Virus record (IMG/VR): IMGVR_UViG_2609459801_000010
DNA length: 14,433 nt
Strand: one strand, 5' to 3'
Source of the DNA: a virus
Taxonomy: Duplodnaviria; Heunggongvirae; Uroviricota; Caudoviricetes
Below are positions 3,932-11,698 of the stretch, one piece after another; within the stretch, counting starts at the first letter, position 1; each line of letters opens with the position of its first letter. The notes beneath the pieces are model-generated. The model saw only the letters and a list, made by a program, of their open reading frames with translations. It did not search any database and was not told the DNA's origin. The position numbers and the translations under genes were made by a program.

Positions 3932-6196
3932 TTATACGGAAACTGGCACACGAGCAGGCAATGGATAGTGAGCCCAGTTATTAGCATTTAAAGCTCTTAC
4001 GCCATCAGCATAAACTTGTGTGTTTCCATCTAATGATTTTAAAGTTACTACAATAGTTACAGGTAAAGGCTCCATTAAGGCCGGTTCATTCGCTCTCAAC
4101 GTTGTTTTAGCTTGAAGAGCCCAGTTACCCGAAGTAATTCCTTTATTAAATGCCTTGCGATGAATTTTTACTGGTGACCACTTTCCACCATGCTCAATTT
4201 GAGCTCTCTCATATCCAGATTGACCGTTTTCTCCTTCCATAGGTACTTTTCCTTTTATAGTATTATTCTCAATTAAGCCAAAACTTAGCTCTACGTTCGC
4301 GCGAACATATTCACTGCCGGCATTAGGGTTCAGTGGTGGTGCATATGCAGCAGTAATTACAATCTCACCTTTAAATTTTCCATTTTGAATAAGTGCCGAT
4401 GGTATGGGATAGTTTTCCTTTCTCCACCTCACCCCAGGAACCAAGAATGTTTGGAAAATCAGAGTAAACCTATCATCACTATCATATAAGGTCTCAATAA
4501 CCTCATTAGGAATTCCCGCTCCCAAATAGCGTCTTTCACTTGGCGAGTAATCAGGAGAAGATAATTGAGCGGAATGAATTAATAATGCTTTAATCAATGA
4601 TGGTGAAACATTAAAGTCTGAATTAGTGGCTATTCTCTGCCATGTATGCGCAGCTAAACTTGCCACAATTGGAGCAGCAAAACTAGTACCAAAATTAGAG
4701 CAAAGCCTATTATCTGGCCCTACGACCTTTAAACTGCTTGCTCCTACATTCCAAGGTCTATGAACCCCACCGCCAGCATGGATTATATCTGGCTTTGGAG
4801 TAAATACAGGCCCAGGGCCACGACGAGTATATGGTGTCGGTGTTCCAATTTCACTTAAAGCATCATTAGCTTCCATATGAGAAACTGAACCAACTGTTAG
4901 TGCTCGGACTGACTCTCCAGGAGAGGAAATTAAATCAGCACCTCCAAGCGGATCAGGATTTGGCCATGTACGTATAGGTTCATCTACATAATTACCTGCA
5001 GCAACTACAAACAAAATACCAAATTTATCGCTGAGCCGATCTAACTCCATCGCAAAATCACTAAACATCTGCTCATTACATGGTCCGCCTCCCAAAGATA
5101 AATTCCAGACTTTTATATCTGGTCTTTTATTTACAGCATCTGCTAGCCTCAGAATTAAATCTGATATATAAGATCCATTTTCATCTAAAGCACAAACATC
5201 ATGGATTTTAGATTTTGTATCAGGAATCCATGGATGATTGTCATTTAAAAAATGAGCGCCTGATATCAATGAAGACACCATAGTCCCATGTTCATAACTC
5301 GTATCAGGAGGAATTACGTATGTTTCCCTACTCACTACCCAAGGAGTAATTGTTGCCGCGATGGGGCTTACCCCAGTGTCAAATACAGCAACAATGGGTA
5401 ATTCTTCTGATGGTACGGGAAAGCTATTTGTTTCAATGCCAACAGAATCACTTACACTAACCGGGAATGCTGAATATTTTGGTTCTGGAATTAACGTTCT
5501 TATACCCGGGTAATCAATGAGAATGTCTAATATATATCTATCATTTGGGGATAAATCCATTATCCTTAATAAGGGAAGACCACATTTTGGTCTAATCTCA
5601 TCATATTTAACTCCGTGTTGTTCTAATATAGAAATAACGTTTTCATAGTTGTTGTAAGTTGCATCTTCACCTGTGTACTCAAATAGTCGTACAAGGATGT
5701 TTGATGATTCAAACAAACCATCAGTGCCTCCTGGAACCTTCCTATTCTCATCCCAAGGTTCAATGCGCTCAATCGCGCTTAGGTTAGCCAAAATCGCTTT
5801 AATATTCCGATGTAAAATGACTGACTCTAATACGTCAAAACAGCCGGCATGAGCAGCAACCAACATTTCATCTATTTTGGCATGACCGGCATTTTGCAAT
5901 CCAGCCTCTTGAGCAATTTTGTTCGGCCTATGCGTTTTGGCTATTCCCTGGTCTCTTAATTTGAAAACCAAAGTACCCAAGCTTCCAGGGTACTCTGAAA
6001 GTTTGGATTCTAAATAATGTTTACTGGTTGTTAAATTTCTTACTAGCCCTTGTCTATATTCGGCTGTTACATCAACCAATACCTTTGCCCCACCGCCAGC
6101 GTTTACTATTGCACCCAAGTCACTACTGGAAAAAGGGATTCTTAACATTGGGTTTGTAACTTTTGCGTTACTAAACTGTGTACCCCTTCTGCTCAT
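3932..6196 (-). CDS. Subtilisin-like serine peptidase (peptidase S8 family), 754 aa, no signal peptide; IetS-like
   Basis: Catalytic triad in canonical subtilase order: Asp in VAVFDTGVS, His in YEHGTMVSS, oxyanion Asn in VVAAGNY, Ser in NFGTSFAAPIVAS. Polar N-terminus with no hydrophobic signal sequence. Strong SD (AAGGAG/AGGAG) before the ATG at 6196. About 270 aa N-terminal and 200 aa C-terminal to the catalytic core have no motif I recognise. Confidence 0.85.
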   Translation of the reverse strand: MSRRGTQFSNAKVTNPMLRIPFSSSDLGAIVNAGGGAKVLVDVTAEYRQGLVRNLTTSKHYLESKLSEYPGSLGTLVFKLRDQGIAKTHRPNKIAQEAGLQNAGHAKIDEMLVAAHAGCFDVLESVILHRNIKAILANLSAIERIEPWDENRKVPGGTDGLFESSNILVRLFEYTGEDATYNNYENVISILEQHGVKYDEIRPKCGLPLLRIMDLSPNDRYILDILIDYPGIRTLIPEPKYSAFPVSVSDSVGIETNSFPVPSEELPIVAVFDTGVSPIAATITPWVVSRETYVIPPDTSYEHGTMVSSLISGAHFLNDNHPWIPDTKSKIHDVCALDENGSYISDLILRLADAVNKRPDIKVWNLSLGGGPCNEQMFSDFAMELDRLSDKFGILFVVAAGNYVDEPIRTWPNPDPLGGADLISSPGESVRALTVGSVSHMEANDALSEIGTPTPYTRRGPGPVFTPKPDIIHAGGGVHRPWNVGASSLKVVGPDNRLCSNFGTSFAAPIVASLAAHTWQRIATNSDFNVSPSLIKALLIHSAQLSSPDYSPSERRYLGAGIPNEVIETLYDSDDRFTLIFQTFLVPGVRWRKENYPIPSALIQNGKFKGEIVITAAYAPPLNPNAGSEYVRANVELSFGLIENNTIKGKVPMEGENGQSGYERAQIEHGGKWSPVKIHRKAFNKGITSGNWALQAKTTLRANEPALMEPLPVTIVVTLKSLDGNTQVYADGVRALNANNWAHYPLPARVPVSV

Positions 6197-7325
6197 ATGC
6201 TCCTGACTCCTTCAGAATGTTTGAAATTACTCTTGATGTAAGTTTGTACAAATTAGCAAGAACTCTGATAGAAAATAATTTTTTATCTTTAGAACGTAAC
6301 CAACGAATTTCATCTTCGTAAGTGCTTAAATTTACACCTTCCATAAGCGATTGCGCAAGATACAAACGCCTATACAATTTATGGTGATTTATCACACTTG
6401 CACCTTCAATAACTGCATCCCTACGTGCATCCAAGCTCACCTGTTCAATTATTGCTCCGGATAATCCCTCCGATTTTCTTGATAAATCACTTAAATCTAG
6501 ATCGCTACATATCATATTCTTTAAACGATTTTTCCAAATTAACTCTCTCTGATGTATGTCAGGCAGAGGCATTGGAATTCTGAAGCTAAATCGCCTCCAG
6601 ATTGCAGGATCCAGAAGTTGCTCATGGTTAGTTGAGGCAATAATTACCGTATCCTCTGATGCCGCATCCATATTCTGCAATAGTGAAATGACAACTCGCT
6701 GAAGCTCACCTATATCTCTCTCATTACCTCTTGCTCCAGCTAAAGCATCAAATTCGTCTAAAAAAAGCACTGATGGCCTCTGCATTACATAATCGAAAAC
6801 CTGTCTAAGATTTTTGCTGGTTTGTCCCAATAAACTACTAATCAAAGTATCGCAACGCACTGTAAGAAGTGGAAAATCTAAGCGGGTAGCGATGTACTTA
6901 GATAACATAGTCTTACCTGTTCCTGGCTTTCCATACACGAGCATACGACTCGGCAATGCTGCATCAGCTTTAACAAACTCATCATAACGTTGAACATTAG
7001 TGATAAACTCTTCAACACGGGTACTGATTGCTGCAGGCAGAAAAATCTCTGAACTGTCTAATTTAGGATAACTGACATCAACAGTGTTGAGTCGACTATC
7101 AATATCTACCGGTAATGAGCCCAGAGATATCCCACCTCCAGCCCTTTGAGCTCCTGCCAACGCCTGGGGAGCTCTAAGCAACCTTTCTCTTATCATTCTG
7201 GCTTGCTTGACCTCCCCTTTTTGTTCGAGCTTATCTGCCAGCAACCCAGCATAATTACTAGCCATCGAAGCATTTGCCTTTGTTGCACCTTCAATGATTT
7301 TTAACACTTCTGATAAATAATCCAT
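6171..7325 (-). CDS. AAA+ ATPase (classical AAA clade), 384 aa; IetA-like
   Basis: Walker A LVYGKPGTGKTML, Walker B SVLFLDEFDAL, second region of homology IIASTNHEQLLDPAIWRRFSF. GGGAG SD before the ATG at 7325. 3' end overlaps the peptidase start by 26 nt, implying co-translation. Confidence 0.85.
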   Translation of the reverse strand: MDYLSEVLKIIEGATKANASMASNYAGLLADKLEQKGEVKQARMIRERLLRAPQALAGAQRAGGGISLGSLPVDIDSRLNTVDVSYPKLDSSEIFLPAAISTRVEEFITNVQRYDEFVKADAALPSRMLVYGKPGTGKTMLSKYIATRLDFPLLTVRCDTLISSLLGQTSKNLRQVFDYVMQRPSVLFLDEFDALAGARGNERDIGELQRVVISLLQNMDAASEDTVIIASTNHEQLLDPAIWRRFSFRIPMPLPDIHQRELIWKNRLKNMICSDLDLSDLSRKSEGLSGAIIEQVSLDARRDAVIEGASVINHHKLYRRLYLAQSLMEGVNLSTYEDEIRWLRSKDKKLFSIRVLANLYKLTSRVISNILKESGAYEQKGYTV

Positions 7326-8749: not shown

Positions 8750-9496
8750 TTACTTCGCAATTCCTGGCTGGACGACATTCGGACGCCAGCTCTCCCAGTT
8801 AAAATTCCCCCATAGCCCGCCGTTCATGGTCATGCGATCCATAATCCGCTCGCCGAGCAATGTTTTCATGGCCTCATAGTTCAGGTTTGTCAGCATCCCC
8901 ACGCTGCGCATCGACGCTGTCCGGCGATCAACAATCTGGTGCAGTACCACCTGCTCGTTTTTCGTCTCGCGCTGAATGCCAATTTCATCAAGAACCAGCA
9001 GATCCACTTCGCACAGTTCCCGCAAAAATTTTTCGCCTGACTGCCCATCGTCATAGCTGGCGTGGAGGGCACTCATAACATCAGCCACGGTAACCACAAT
9101 CACTGTCTGACCGTCTTTCAGCAGGCGATTCCCGATAGCTGCTGCTAAGTGGTTCTTCCCGGTACCAGGTTTTCCGCTAAACGCGAAATTTGTGCATCCG
9201 GTCATCAGTTCATCAGCGATAGATTTCGCCTGGCTCAACGCGTATCGCTGACCGTCGTTCTGCACCTGGTAATTCGCAAACGAGCATTTACGGTGCAACG
9301 GCTGGATGCCTGAGCGATTCAGAATTTTTTCCACCCGCAACTGGCGATTCAGGCGGTTGATCTCCTCGCTACGTTTCTGGCCTTCAGCAAGTTGCCACTC
9401 GTGCCACTCCGCTACCGTTCTGAATGGGGCGGTTACATGTGGCGGAGCCAGTCTTCGGATACGTTCAAGAACGCCGCCTGCCGCAATGTTTTTCAT
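8750..9496 (-). CDS. DnaC-like replicative helicase loader (248 aa)
   Basis: [39 protein letters not shown] is nearly identical in pattern to the E. coli DnaC Walker A region; Walker B LLVLDEIG. Directly downstream of the initiator gene. Confidence 0.9.
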
Positions 9497-9502
9497 GACA
9501 CG

Positions 9503-10465
9503 TCACCCCCTGAATCCCGGCGGTATTTCAGTGTCCGGTTCAGAAATGTGATTCACGCAACGCTGCGCAGGCAAACGCCCCAGGCGGATAACCAGTTCAT
9601 CCCATTTTTCCCGGAGTTTTGCCGGACTCATGATGTTTTTTACCCAGAACGAATCCCGCTGGAGACGCCCAAACATTTCACAAATTTGTCTGTGAGTTCT
9701 GCCATCCAGCATCCGCATTGTGCGAACGTCATTGGCCCATGCTGTCCAGTTGGGTTCTTTCGGTCTAGTGATCTCGCCATCATAGCTGGCCGCCTGCTCG
9801 TAAAGACTCACGATTCGTCCCCAGATCCACTGTGCGCACACCAAATCTTCCTGACTTCCCCACTGGCGTTTTTTCGCACTGAACACAACCGCGTCAGGGT
9901 GTCGGGTTAAAAAATCCTGTTCAGCCGTCTGCGGGTCCGGTTGCGAAGCGTCCGGACAAGAAGATCTTTTATCTGACGGATCAGGTTTTAATACTGACGG
10001 ATCGGGGTCAATCATCGGCCCCCTAATCGGCAGTTTTTTATCAACAGTTGATCCATCAAAATTTGACGGGTCAACCGTTGAGGGGTCAATATTTGACGGG
10101 TCAACTGTTAACGGGTCATTTTTTGCCGGGCTAATTTTTCTTTTCGGTTTATATGACTCACGCGCCGCCGCCGCAGCTGCTTCGAGTTTTTCCACATTAA
10201 GCCGATAGATATTGCTTACATTACGCCCACCGACCTTACGCTCTTCCTTCGTCAGCCAGCCCTCTTTCGCCAGTTCTGCAATAGCCGATTTCACTGTGGA
10301 TTCACTTCTTGCACCGATCTGACGCCGGATAGTTTCAATGGCAGGCCATGACACGCCCTCGTCATTGCTGTAGTCTGCAAGACGGGCCATAACCGCCACC
10401 CTGGATAAGATCATGCCGGTGAAGGCGCACCCTTCCCAGACAAGACCATGAAGCTTGCTGCTCAT
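9503..10465 (-). CDS. Phage replication initiator (O-like) with N-terminal HTH and DnaT-like C-terminal domain (320 aa from ATG at 10465)
   Basis: C-terminus ...NHISEPDTEIPPGFRG matches the DnaT C-terminus (...VSEPDSQIPPGFRG). N-terminal HTH-like segment; central low-complexity DPSxVD repeats encoded by the iterons. ATG at 10465 (after a GGGGG run) preferred over the GTG at 10480. Confidence 0.8.
   Translation of the reverse strand: MSSKLHGLVWEGCAFTGMILSRVAVMARLADYSNDEGVSWPAIETIRRQIGARSESTVKSAIAELAKEGWLTKEERKVGGRNVSNIYRLNVEKLEAAAAAARESYKPKRKISPAKNDPLTVDPSNIDPSTVDPSNFDGSTVDKKLPIRGPMIDPDPSVLKPDPSDKRSSCPDASQPDPQTAEQDFLTRHPDAVVFSAKKRQWGSQEDLVCAQWIWGRIVSLYEQAASYDGEITRPKEPNWTAWANDVRTMRMLDGRTHRQICEMFGRLQRDSFWVKNIMSPAKLREKWDELVIRLGRLPAQRCVNHISEPDTEIPPGFRG
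10048..10118. repeat. Origin-like iterons: five copies of TTGAcGGGTCAA-like 12-mers at strict 15-bp phasing inside the initiator gene
   Basis: Copies at 10048 (ttgatccatcaa), 10063 (ttgacgggtcaa), 10078 (ttgaggggtcaa), 10093 (ttgacgggtcaa), 10108 (ttaacgggtca); each is an inverted repeat TTGAC-nn-GTCAA; AT-rich stretch at 10119-10150. Same logic as the lambda ori inside gene O. Confidence 0.6.
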
Positions 10466-10487
10466 AAACCCCCCGAACACCGTGCTT

Positions 10488-10913
10488 TTAGTGCATCACC
10501 ACAGCATTCCCTGCCGGGCCGCCGCGATTCATCTGGTCATACAAAACAACCGCTGACGCAACAAAATCATCGACATCCTTCCCCAGCCGATCCCTCCGTT
10601 CGACGATCTCACGGTAATATTCAGAACTGTGGCTGCGCATACGGGCCACCAGCAAAGGCGGCATCGCCTTTTCGATCGCCGGTAACAGAGCCTGCATTTT
10701 TTCAACAGCATCAGGGGTGTCTTTATCCAGCCAACGGAAAATTTTCTGGGTATTACGGGCCAGGGCTTCCGGATGGCTGTCGTCATACAGTTCCGGGAAC
10801 GTCATTCCCAGCTCGAAATACGCTTTGGTAATTTTCGCAGCCGGCACTTTTTCGCCGTCCGGATGCGCCCAGACATTCATCGCCATGCGGATGTGTTCAT
10901 GCTTGATTTTCAT
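10488..10913 (-). CDS. YdaT-like protein (141 aa), likely CII-type regulator
   Basis: ATG at 10913 with AGGAG SD; begins MKIKHEHI; lies between the cro-like and replication genes as in the Rac ydaS-ydaT-ydaU-ydaV arrangement. Assigned from synteny and memory. Confidence 0.55.
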   Translation of the reverse strand: MKIKHEHIRMAMNVWAHPDGEKVPAAKITKAYFELGMTFPELYDDSHPEALARNTQKIFRWLDKDTPDAVEKMQALLPAIEKAMPPLLVARMRSHSSEYYREIVERRDRLGKDVDDFVASAVVLYDQMNRGGPAGNAVVMH

Positions 10914-11178
10914 GAATCAAGCTCCTAGAAAGTGGTTGTGTTAACGTTTTGGTATCTTCCAGCTCGGGCCAAATATTCATCCAATCAAAAGGCCTTAGTT
11001 GCTGACGTGTAACTTCACCATTACTGGCTCGCTCAATAAGGACACATAACGATGCCCCTAACACTTGACCTTTACTCAATGCCTTTCTTAGATAACCGAT
11101 GCTGGTACCACACTCGCATGCAAACATACGCTGTTCATCTGACGAAAGAGAATTGAGAAATATTCTTAATTCTTCCAT
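10897..11178 (-). CDS. Cro-like HTH regulator (YdaS family-like), 93 aa
   Basis: ATG at 11178 with strong SD TAAGGAG 5 nt upstream; HTH-like CGTSIGYLRKALSKGQ and ...NGEVTRQQLRPFDW; divergent from the repressor gene across an operator region. Confidence 0.65.
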   Translation of the reverse strand: MEELRIFLNSLSSDEQRMFACECGTSIGYLRKALSKGQVLGASLCVLIERASNGEVTRQQLRPFDWMNIWPELEDTKTLTQPLSRSLIHENQA

Positions 11179-11203
11179 AGCTACTCCTTAGTAAACACAG
11201 CAA

Positions 11204-11272
11204 AGAATACCCACAGGTAAACAAAAGTCAATACCCACAGGTTGTTTACCTTGCGGTAATCGCATCTATTAT
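11204..11272. promoter_or_regulatory. Divergent promoter/operator region (OR-like) between cro-like and repressor genes
   Basis: Two copies of ATACCCACAGGT (11207-11219, 11231-11243), 24 bp apart. On the minus strand they overlap a -35 TTGACT (11231-11226) and a -10 TATTCT (11209-11204) for the cro-like gene. On the plus strand a -10-like TATTAT (11267-11272) ends 6 nt before the repressor ATG. Confidence 0.5.
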
Positions 11273-11278
11273 TTACCT

Positions 11279-11698
11279 ATGGACAAATATGAATTTAGAC
11301 GACAGCAACTCATCAAAATTCGTGATGAGAAATGCGATGGTAAAGCGGTTAACGTGGCCAGAAAGATCGGGCGCGAGCCTTCTTATGTATCAAGAATGTT
11401 GTACCCAGAGGGGAAAAAGGGAAAAAAACGGATCGCTGATGATATGGTGGAGATTATCGAAGAGTCCTTTGGGTTACCCCGGGGATGGATGGATGGTATC
11501 GTTTCATCATCAACGAACACAGCCTCCAGTTATGAAACAAGGGTTCTAACGCCACGACAACGTATTTTTTTAGATCTCTTAGACGAACTGCCAGAAAGTG
11601 AAGCGGATAAATTATTAAAAACTCTTGAAGAGAAAAAACAGTATTACAATATGATCTACGAAGAAATCCGTAAAAAGAAAGCACAAAACGCATCATAG
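11279..11698 (+). CDS. Prophage repressor-like HTH protein (139 aa), RacR/DicA-position
   Basis: Divergent from the cro-like gene; HTH-like AVNVARKIGREPSYVSRML; no SD upstream and a -10 hexamer just before the ATG suggests a leaderless mRNA, as for lambda cI from PRM. Confidence 0.65.
   Translation: MDKYEFRRQQLIKIRDEKCDGKAVNVARKIGREPSYVSRMLYPEGKKGKKRIADDMVEIIEESFGLPRGWMDGIVSSSTNTASSYETRVLTPRQRIFLDLLDELPESEADKLLKTLEEKKQYYNMIYEEIRKKKAQNAS

Follow-up and report, generated by a model that had tools for sequence, protein, structure and literature searches.

We have analysed a tandem array of 15-base-pair (bp) units located inside the gene for an O-like replication initiator. The array lies in a DNA stretch of 14,433 nucleotides (nt) from a Caudoviricetes virus (IMG/VR record IMGVR_UViG_2609459801_000010), and this whole stretch is called the window. 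The window is part of a lambdoid, Rac-like Escherichia coli prophage. According to sequence comparisons, the array most probably corresponds to the initiator-binding iteron part of a lambda-style origin within the initiator gene, and the probability of this assignment is estimated to be about 0.75. The original prediction had placed a replication origin inside this gene, and the computational tests all agree with it. The anatomy of the array, its conservation throughout the family, the selection on its DNA, the co-variation with the N-terminal domain (N-domain) of the initiator, and the homologies of the C-terminal domain (C-domain) and of the helicase loader are established. The features are listed in Table 1.

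Structure of the array

The array starts with a TCAA half-site, and five units follow: TTGATCCATCAAAAT at 10048, TTGACGGGTCAACCG at 10063, TTGAGGGGTCAATAT at 10078, TTGACGGGTCAACTG at 10093 and TTAACGGGTCATTTT at 10108. The strict period predicted for the five units was confirmed by the repeat search, which gave spacings of 15, 15, 15 and 15 bp, and by Tandem Repeats Finder, which detected a 15-bp period at 10041–10118 and 10062–10139 (5.2 copies, 71% matches). A 30-bp super-period fits better, with 82–84% matches.

Each unit had been described as an inverted repeat TTGAC-nn-GTCAA. This motif is exact in units 2 and 4, whereas unit 3 has one mismatch and unit 5 has two. Unit 1 is instead another perfect palindrome, TTGAT-CC-ATCAA. 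A second register, TCAA-N3-TTGA, is equally good, and its four exact copies are located at 10041, 10056, 10071 and 10086. The array is a chain of alternately inverted TCAA and TTGA half-sites, 7 and 8 nt apart. The register of the recognized dyad is ambiguous, and the core common to the whole family is the 11-mer TCA-R-A-W-T-Y-TGA plus four variable bases. Allowing at most one mismatch, TTGACNNGTCAA is matched three times in the window (0.55 expected). TCAANNNTTGA is matched four times (0.45 expected), a number reached in none of 200 shuffles. All the matches to both motifs are inside the array.

On the minus strand, the array encodes the peptide NDPLT VDPSN IDPST VDPSN FDGST VD, so that the linker of the initiator contains a peptide repeat, as had been proposed. 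The exact segment is found in 1521 of 5426 complete E. coli genomes, including O157, O111, O103 and O145 strains. Among the 80 near-identical IMG/VR copies (L090–L169), whose N-domain is identical, two have lost or never gained one unit and have four in place of five.

Two other interpretations of short motifs in this region were rejected. The sequences TTATCAACA and TTTTCCACA flank the array at 10038–10046 and 10188–10196 and resemble DnaA boxes with one mismatch each; the total of 11 such sites in the window is lower than the 14.7 expected. The TTGAC motifs were considered as −35 boxes of an internal promoter, and the scan gave no promoter-like site in 9400–11200.

Selection on the DNA of the array

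The comparison set comprised 89 distinct genes, namely eight phage homologues (from SfIV, phiNP, Flotzy, YeP1, Kp4866-6, phiP27, an Stx2a phage and KpnBHU6), 80 loci from different Enterobacterales species, and the window. Codon and information counts were taken over 417 array units. In nearly all of the 89 genes, an in-frame array of 15-bp period is located directly after the N-domain, at codons of about 97–120, and the number of units is between 2 and 10. The best score at lag 15 is typically 40–54 of 60, compared with about 25–30 at other lags. In the exceptional loci L072 and L086, lag 15 is no better than other lags, and the sites are dispersed rather than tandem.

Positions 1–11 of the unit carry 0.9–1.6 bits each, third codon positions included, whereas positions 12–15 are nearly free (0.2–0.8 bits). 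The codon usage within the units is restricted. Ser at unit codon 1 is encoded by TCA in 338 of 352 cases, and Ser at unit codon 3 by TCT in 237 of 295; elsewhere in the same genes, TCA accounts for 258 and TCT for 150 of 1642 Ser codons. Lys in the array is always AAA (225/225), compared with 699/1132 elsewhere in the same genes. As controls, two invariant residues of the N-domain were inspected. Ser84 is encoded by TCG (27), TCC (15), AGC (12), AGT (8), TCA (8) and TCT (2), and Asp31 by GAC (46) and GAT (42), which shows that synonymous codons are free there.

The amino acids of the array vary non-conservatively, with S/P/A/L, S/F/I/V/T/Y and A/P/T/G at three positions and D/E/N/G as further variation. 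In the subclass to which the window belongs (relatives in Erwinia, Mixta, Edwardsiella and Morganella), TTGA-CCCC-TCAA units alternate with the reverse complement TTGA-GGGG-TCAA, and D-P-S becomes E-G-S. The dyad symmetry of the units is conserved throughout the family. The original prediction held that the repeat is constrained at both the nucleotide and the protein level. Only half of this holds, as the constraint falls overwhelmingly on the DNA and the peptide varies non-conservatively. The fixed synonymous codons, the non-conservative residues, the strand flips and the conserved dyads indicate that selection acts on the DNA and that the peptide repeat is a by-product. Because the array is placed in a tolerant inter-domain linker and has a period of exactly five codons, it is the DNA motif that determines the peptide repeat. 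The five-codon period also allows units to be gained or lost without a frameshift.

These data bear directly on the alternative that only the peptide is selected, as a flexible or functional DPSxV linker, and that the periodicity and palindromes of the DNA are by-products of repeated codons or of a recent duplication. Such a linker would be in frame, located between two domains and rich in Pro, Ser and Asp, as linkers often are, and its unit number would vary as in slippage-prone repeats; the array has all these features. However, selection on the peptide does not account for synonymous positions that are fixed (TCA 96%, TCT 80%, AAA 100%) while invariant residues of the N-domain vary synonymously. 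The residues change non-conservatively where the DNA motif allows, the CCCC/GGGG flips giving DPS or EGS, and for a peptide the conserved dyad symmetry would have no relevance. Selection on the peptide alone is largely refuted, and we regard it as essentially excluded.

A second in-frame, DNA-driven peptide repeat was observed in the same linker of Klebsiella phage Kp4866-6 (L002, 1954–1989; gene nt 453–488). There, the downstream motif forms a 12-bp tandem of three copies of GATCCGTCATTA, and DPSL DPSL DPS is encoded.

The array can also be viewed as a DNA structure. The segment 10036–10126 is a long imperfect palindrome centred at 10076, with 33-nt arms. A 67-nt hairpin is predicted on either strand (free energy dG −16.9; z −4.4 and −5.0), and none of 200 shuffles is as good. 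The homologous arrays fold similarly (median z −3.3, 69 of 86 below −2), whereas control segments from the N-domain do not (median z −0.4, 6 of 86 below −2). Extrusion as a cruciform or a single-strand hairpin could provide an entry site for the helicase or primosome in place of duplex binding sites, and the resemblance of the initiator tail to that of DnaT, a primosome protein, would fit such a role. However, the stems are imperfect (79% complementary), and what is conserved is 11 specific bases in each unit, not compensatory changes between distant arms. The hairpin potential is an automatic consequence of tandem dyad units. We consider this structural explanation very improbable.

Co-variation of the units with the N-domain

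The initiator matches PHROG 391 ('replication initiation O-like') with an E value of 2.7e-114, residues 1–320 covering profile positions 1–298 of 298. It is therefore a full-length member of the PHROG 391/HTH_36 O-like initiators of enterobacterial temperate phages, and the same 963-nt coding sequence is annotated by RefSeq in an identical E. coli copy. The N-domain is the conserved part of the protein across the 89 homologues, and weak matches to winged-helix proteins of the MarR/GntR type were found for it in the PDB. PHROG 277 matches residues 155–299.

In the homologues, the array always accompanies the N-domain, whereas the C-domains belong to at least three types unrelated to each other. 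A comparison of iteron sequence and initiator helix-turn-helix (HTH) specificity in relatives had been suggested, and it showed that the unit consensus tracks the N-domain. Over all pairs, the similarity of the unit consensus has a Spearman coefficient of 0.70 with N-domain identity and 0.39 with C-domain identity; as the pairs are not independent, no p-value is attached. SfIV and phiNP have the N-domain (87%) in common and do not differ in unit consensus, while their C-domains are unrelated. The lambda-O-like C-domain, on the other hand, is common to the window and SfIV, but their N-domains differ (66%) and their unit cores are TCAA-N3-TTGA and TCAAAATCTGA, respectively. N-domains with a 5-residue turn are accompanied by TTGA in 12 of 12 cases, and those with a 4-residue turn by CTGA in 64 of 65. 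The longer turn and a changed start of the recognition helix (TV[S/K/T]A/S versus TVRT) coincide with T versus C at unit position 8.

The selection on the DNA demonstrates a function, not which one, and the units might be protein-binding sites outside origin function, with the true origin elsewhere. They could serve the initiator for autoregulation or copy control of the handcuffing type, or they could belong to another protein. The window encodes several other DNA-binding proteins, and the DUF1627 winged-helix protein, the YdaT/CII-like protein or, at the GATC pair described below, SeqA could be involved. A factor sensitive to methylation might recognize the GATC sites, which are 21–24 nt apart, and the same loader functions in K-12 Rac together with an unrelated, array-free initiator. 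Against this, the unit sequence tracks the N-domain of the initiator, whatever the C-domain and the neighbouring genes. No further copies are present elsewhere in the 14.4-kb window, for example near promoters. The position matches that of the lambda iterons, and AT-rich DNA flanks the array. Sites outside origin function are thus judged to be unlikely, though less so than the structural explanation above.

The exchange of C-domains raises another explanation, in which the conserved DNA at the junction of the two domains would mainly be a 'boundary sequence' for homologous recombination, with which lambdoid phages could swap the C-domain of the initiator and the loader downstream. The same N-domain and array are found in front of three or more unrelated types of C-domain, and immediately ahead of the junction a segment (..CCGTCAGAATCTGGNGGNGATCCGTCAG..) shows conservation of its DNA between subclasses. 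However, a boundary role does not account for the period of 15 bp, the symmetry of the dyads, the flips between strands or the subclass-specific units that track the N-domain. As a substitute for origin function a boundary sequence has very little probability; a boundary role is more likely a consequence that coexists with origin function.

AT-rich DNA and GATC motifs

An AT-rich stretch had been predicted to adjoin the array, and such a stretch is present at 10120–10160. The segment 10131–10160 is the least stable 30-mer of the gene, with 73% A+T and a dG of −33.2 against the gene mean of −41.8 [standard deviation (SD) 3.2]. The three 30-mers of lowest stability in the gene are all beside the array or overlap with it. 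However, the stretch at 10120–10160 is specific to the subclass of the window, the only one in which its basic, A-rich patch (KPKRK) occurs. The AT-rich segment conserved in the family, which contains the GATC motifs, is located on the other side of the array, at 9955–10005.

The motif GATCCRTCA is present in 82 of the 89 homologues, 30–50 nt past the array in the direction of transcription. It is usually paired at a distance of 24 nt. In the window the distance is 21 nt, and the copies are CTGACGGATCAG at 9973–9984 and CTGACGGATCGG at 9994–10005. On average over the family, no other part of the gene is as unstable as the roughly 50 bp that span these motifs [dG(24) −28.3 versus −33.3, SD 3.0]; their A+T content is 0.65, and they are A-rich on the sense strand. 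The Asp codon of Asp-Pro is GAC in 78 of 78 cases inside the arrays, whereas it is GAT in 176 of 268 in the downstream motif segment. This choice of GAT-CCN creates Dam sites, and the density of GATC in the motif segment of the homologues is 18/kb, compared with 5/kb over the gene. Directly before the first GATC motif, all relatives of the subclass have an equivalent of the isolated iteron-like unit, TCAATGGTTGACCCC.

GATC occurs in the window at 9963, 9979, 10000 and 10050. These four sites within 91 bp form the densest GATC cluster of the window. Taken from the window alone, however, the cluster is only marginal, as 81 of 2000 random placements also gave four sites in 100 bp. It is the conservation in the family that makes the case for the GATC motifs. 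GATCTTTTATCTG at 9963 (plus strand, 9960–9975) is similar to the 13-mer consensus of E. coli oriC, GATCTnTTnTTTT, and the similarity may be a coincidence. Two more GATC-headed segments follow, at 9979 and 10000.

As candidate unwinding sites, the segment 9955–10003 is ranked first and the stretch 10120–10160 second, because the latter is confined to the subclass of the window.

Comparison with known systems

In lambdoid phages, among them lambda and its Shiga toxin (Stx) phage relatives, the origin is located in the middle of gene O and consists of iterons and an AT-rich region (PMC7466680). The four annotated iterons of lambda (39034–39118) correspond to O codons 116–144, and the array in the window corresponds to codons 116–142 of 320. 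In lambda the origin, and in the window the probable origin, is inside the initiator gene at the junction of an N-domain for DNA binding and a C-domain for helicase recruitment; the C-domain starts here at about residue 153. Repeated dyad-symmetric sites, which are predicted initiator sites in the window, are followed by AT-rich DNA downstream along transcription. AT-rich DNA adjoins the array on both sides, though it is less extreme than that of lambda. The C-terminal domains are homologous (Table 1), and the site specificity goes with the N-domain. For lambda-type O proteins, the N-terminal part sets the ori specificity.

The two systems differ in several respects. The units here are of 11–12 bp with a strict in-frame period of 15 bp, whereas the lambda iterons are of 18 bp and are spaced by 20, 24 and 23 bp. 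The strict period means that a 5-residue peptide repeat is encoded, unlike in lambda. The unit number varies from 2 to 10 across the homologues. The N-domain is assigned by Pfam to HTH_36 and not to Phage_rep_O, and the alignment of its profile with lambda O by hhalign gave a probability of 0.3%; the membership of the lambda O family is thus found in the C-domain and not in the N-domain. The gene downstream of the initiator is not a lambda-P-type partner gene and encodes a DnaC/IstB-type AAA+ ATPase. A conserved pair of GATC motifs in the AT-rich part and a DnaT-like protein tail are further differences. Lambda O retains its ability to complement after in-frame deletions in the ori region (PMC6022878), and a peptide repeat that is a by-product fits this result. 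The O gene of Min27 gave a tblastn match of 39%.

The module of K-12 Rac (ydaS-ydaT-ydaU-ydaV; oriJ) has the same gene order, RacR/YdaS/YdaT-type neighbours and a loader, YdaV, 95% identical to that of the window. The last 19 or so residues of the initiator (IPPGFRG) are also common. However, YdaU is a DUF1376 protein unrelated to the N-domain here, only its last 19 residues align, and ydaU has no 15-bp array. Identity with Rac oriJ was therefore rejected. In K-12 Rac (L170, 3620–5230, ydaU-ydaV), the same loader type is paired with an unrelated, array-free initiator, and from this pairing it appears that initiators have been swapped in front of the same loader with only the IPPGFRG tail kept. 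The tail (..SEPDTEIPPGFRG) ends not only K-12 YdaU but also most homologues, whatever the type of C-domain. This points to a portable motif for docking a host replication protein. The DnaT-like last 25 residues probably explain the 'primosomal protein I' annotations of homologues.

The array can also be compared with the iteron origins of theta plasmids (pPS10, R6K and RK2), which likewise have tandem repeats of variable number beside an AT-rich unwinding element and a winged-helix initiator. Plasmid iterons are typically direct repeats of 17–22 bp, about two helical turns apart, outside the rep gene. The units here are shorter, dyad-symmetric, abutting and coding.

Among the 'Eru' types of replication region in non-lambdoid Stx phages, an HTH_36 protein with a YdaT-like gene upstream has been described (PMC8951638). 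The protein family and the neighbourhood are the same as here, and phiP27 and an Stx2a phage have homologues with such arrays. The 'Eru' work classifies proteins only, and the terms 'iteron', 'origin of replication' and 'repeats' are absent from its text (PMC8951638).

Proposed initiation mechanism

In the proposed mechanism, derepression would lead to transcription from the pR-like promoter and to synthesis of the O-like protein. Its N-terminal winged-helix domain would bind the dyad units, of which five are good, one or two are degenerate and one is isolated (10004–10018). With units at every 15 bp, a multi-protein complex would be formed on about 90–130 bp. The adjacent, easily melted DNA would then open, most likely at 9955–10003 and alternatively at 10120–10160. 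The lambda-O-like C-domain would recruit host DnaB via the phage DnaC-like loader, and the DnaT-like tail may contribute.

Several points weigh against the assignment as a lambda-style origin. The recognized dyad may be in either of two registers, and near-identical E. coli copies tolerate the loss of a half-site through point changes, for instance GAC to GCC in unit 3. As the N-domain has no detectable sequence homology to that of lambda O, the argument from lambda is one of architecture and of the C-domain. The centre-to-centre spacing of 15 bp is tighter than the 20–24 bp of lambda, and neighbouring dyads are separated by about 1.4 helical turns. The AT-rich stretches are less pronounced than that of lambda (−33.2 versus −30.3 kcal/mol per 30-mer). 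The co-variation of the turn with TTGA or CTGA amounts in essence to a single split between two clades and is therefore confounded by phylogeny. Finally, an experiment on this initiator family was not found in the searchable literature; thus we infer binding, the unwinding site, helicase recruitment and origin firing.

A more distinct architecture may also be imagined. The abutting dyads would be read by the non-lambda winged helix as a continuous filament or a cruciform, and the two or three GATC-headed AT-rich segments would act as an oriC-like unwinding element controlled by Dam and SeqA. The DnaT-like tail and the DnaC-like loader would recruit the helicase, and the five-codon period would have evolved for changing the copy number (2–10) safely in frame. 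We offer this proposal tentatively and consider it rather doubtful, although it is less improbable than any of the alternatives discussed above.

A 16-kb circular 'plasmid', NZ_CP148542.1 (L172), was examined as evidence of autonomous replication and was rejected, as a frameshift is present in its O gene within the segment of the GATC motifs (from gene nt 462 on). A sequencing error is suspected. The molecule carries only a lambdoid repressor, cro, the same O-like gene and the DnaC-like gene, through Q and lysis genes, and it resembles lambda-dv or a product of escape replication.

Novelty and significance

An origin inside the initiator gene of a lambdoid phage is textbook knowledge (PMC7466680). 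The array itself is not described in the searchable literature on oriJ, on lambdoid, O or DnaC iterons, on HTH_36, or on SfII and SfIV. The features that are new to this literature are the non-lambda N-domain, the 11–12-bp dyads at a five-codon period, the variable unit number, the conserved GATC pair and the DnaC-like partner.

The replication module is common, with homologues throughout the Enterobacterales and also in Shigella serotype-converting phages and Stx phages. If the assignment is confirmed, an in-frame 15-bp array right after an HTH_36 domain would predict origins and initiator specificities in thousands of prophages. It would account for oddities of annotation, among them the low-complexity linker and the name 'primosomal protein I', and it would be an unusually clean case of a DNA-binding motif dictating a protein sequence. 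As Stx production is driven by phage replication, the origin is a possible handle on induction.

Neighbouring genes and other features

On the minus strand, the genes are in the order ydaS/Cro-like, ydaT/CII-like, O-like initiator and DnaC-like loader, followed by DUF1627 and Ren-like genes. The RacR-like repressor gene is divergent, on the plus strand, and heads the order racR-like/ydaS-like/ydaT-like/O/loader.

Table 1. Positions of the features in and around the initiator gene (numbering of the window).
Feature	Position	Strand	Remarks
DnaC-like helicase-loader gene	8750–9496	−	6 nt 3' of the initiator gene; IstB/DnaC Pfam and NCBIfam matches
O-like replication initiator gene	9503–10465	−	320 residues from ATG at 10465; the mechanically called open reading frame starts at GTG 10480
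C-terminal tail (..VNHISEPDTEIPPGFRG)	9506–9580	−	Like the E. coli DnaT C-terminus; phmmer against PDB 2ru8, 6aep and 9zbt, E 0.006–0.02
Segment homologous to the C-terminal part of lambda O (residues 153–293)	9587–10009	−	BLASTP, 36% identity over 141 residues, E 8e-26
Family-conserved AT-rich segment with GATC at 9963, 9979 and 10000	9955–10003		Third least stable 30-mer in the window gene
Motif pair CTGACGGATC(A/G)G	9973–9984, 9994–10005		Each with a Dam site; gene strand GATCCGTCAG; repeat search
Isolated iteron-like unit	10004–10018		Gene strand CCGATGATTGACCCC
Array, leading TCAA half-site and five 15-bp units	10041–10122		Codons 116–142
A/T-rich stretch, promoter-proximal side of the array	10120–10160		Encodes YKPKRKISPAKN; GC 0.35
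Degenerate sixth unit TTGCCGGGCTAATTT	10123–10137		In array register; 3 mismatches to TTGACNNGTCAA
N-terminal winged-helix DNA-binding domain (residues 1–95)	10181–10465	−	Pfam HTH_36, 27.9 bits (cut-off 25)
YdaS-like gene	10897–11178	−	
Promoter-like site, pR-like position	11204–11231	−	Upstream of the ydaS-like, ydaT-like, O-like and DnaC-like genes; consensus scan, 9/12 matches
RacR-like repressor gene	11279–11698	+	

The promoter-like site at 11204–11231 is a guess from its position, as scan hits in this region are no more frequent than expected by chance. Divergent promoter-like sites are present in 11204–11272, between the RacR-like and YdaS-like genes, again with a scan count not above chance; an immunity switch is expected at this place.

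An anti-phage defence pair was also observed on the minus strand (3932–7325). It consists of IetA, an AAA+ ATPase (6171–7325), and IetS, an S8 peptidase (3932–6196). The pair lies on an island of low GC content, with the replication genes on one side and the DUF968, RusA and antiterminator genes on the other, and this island holds most of the least stable DNA of the window.

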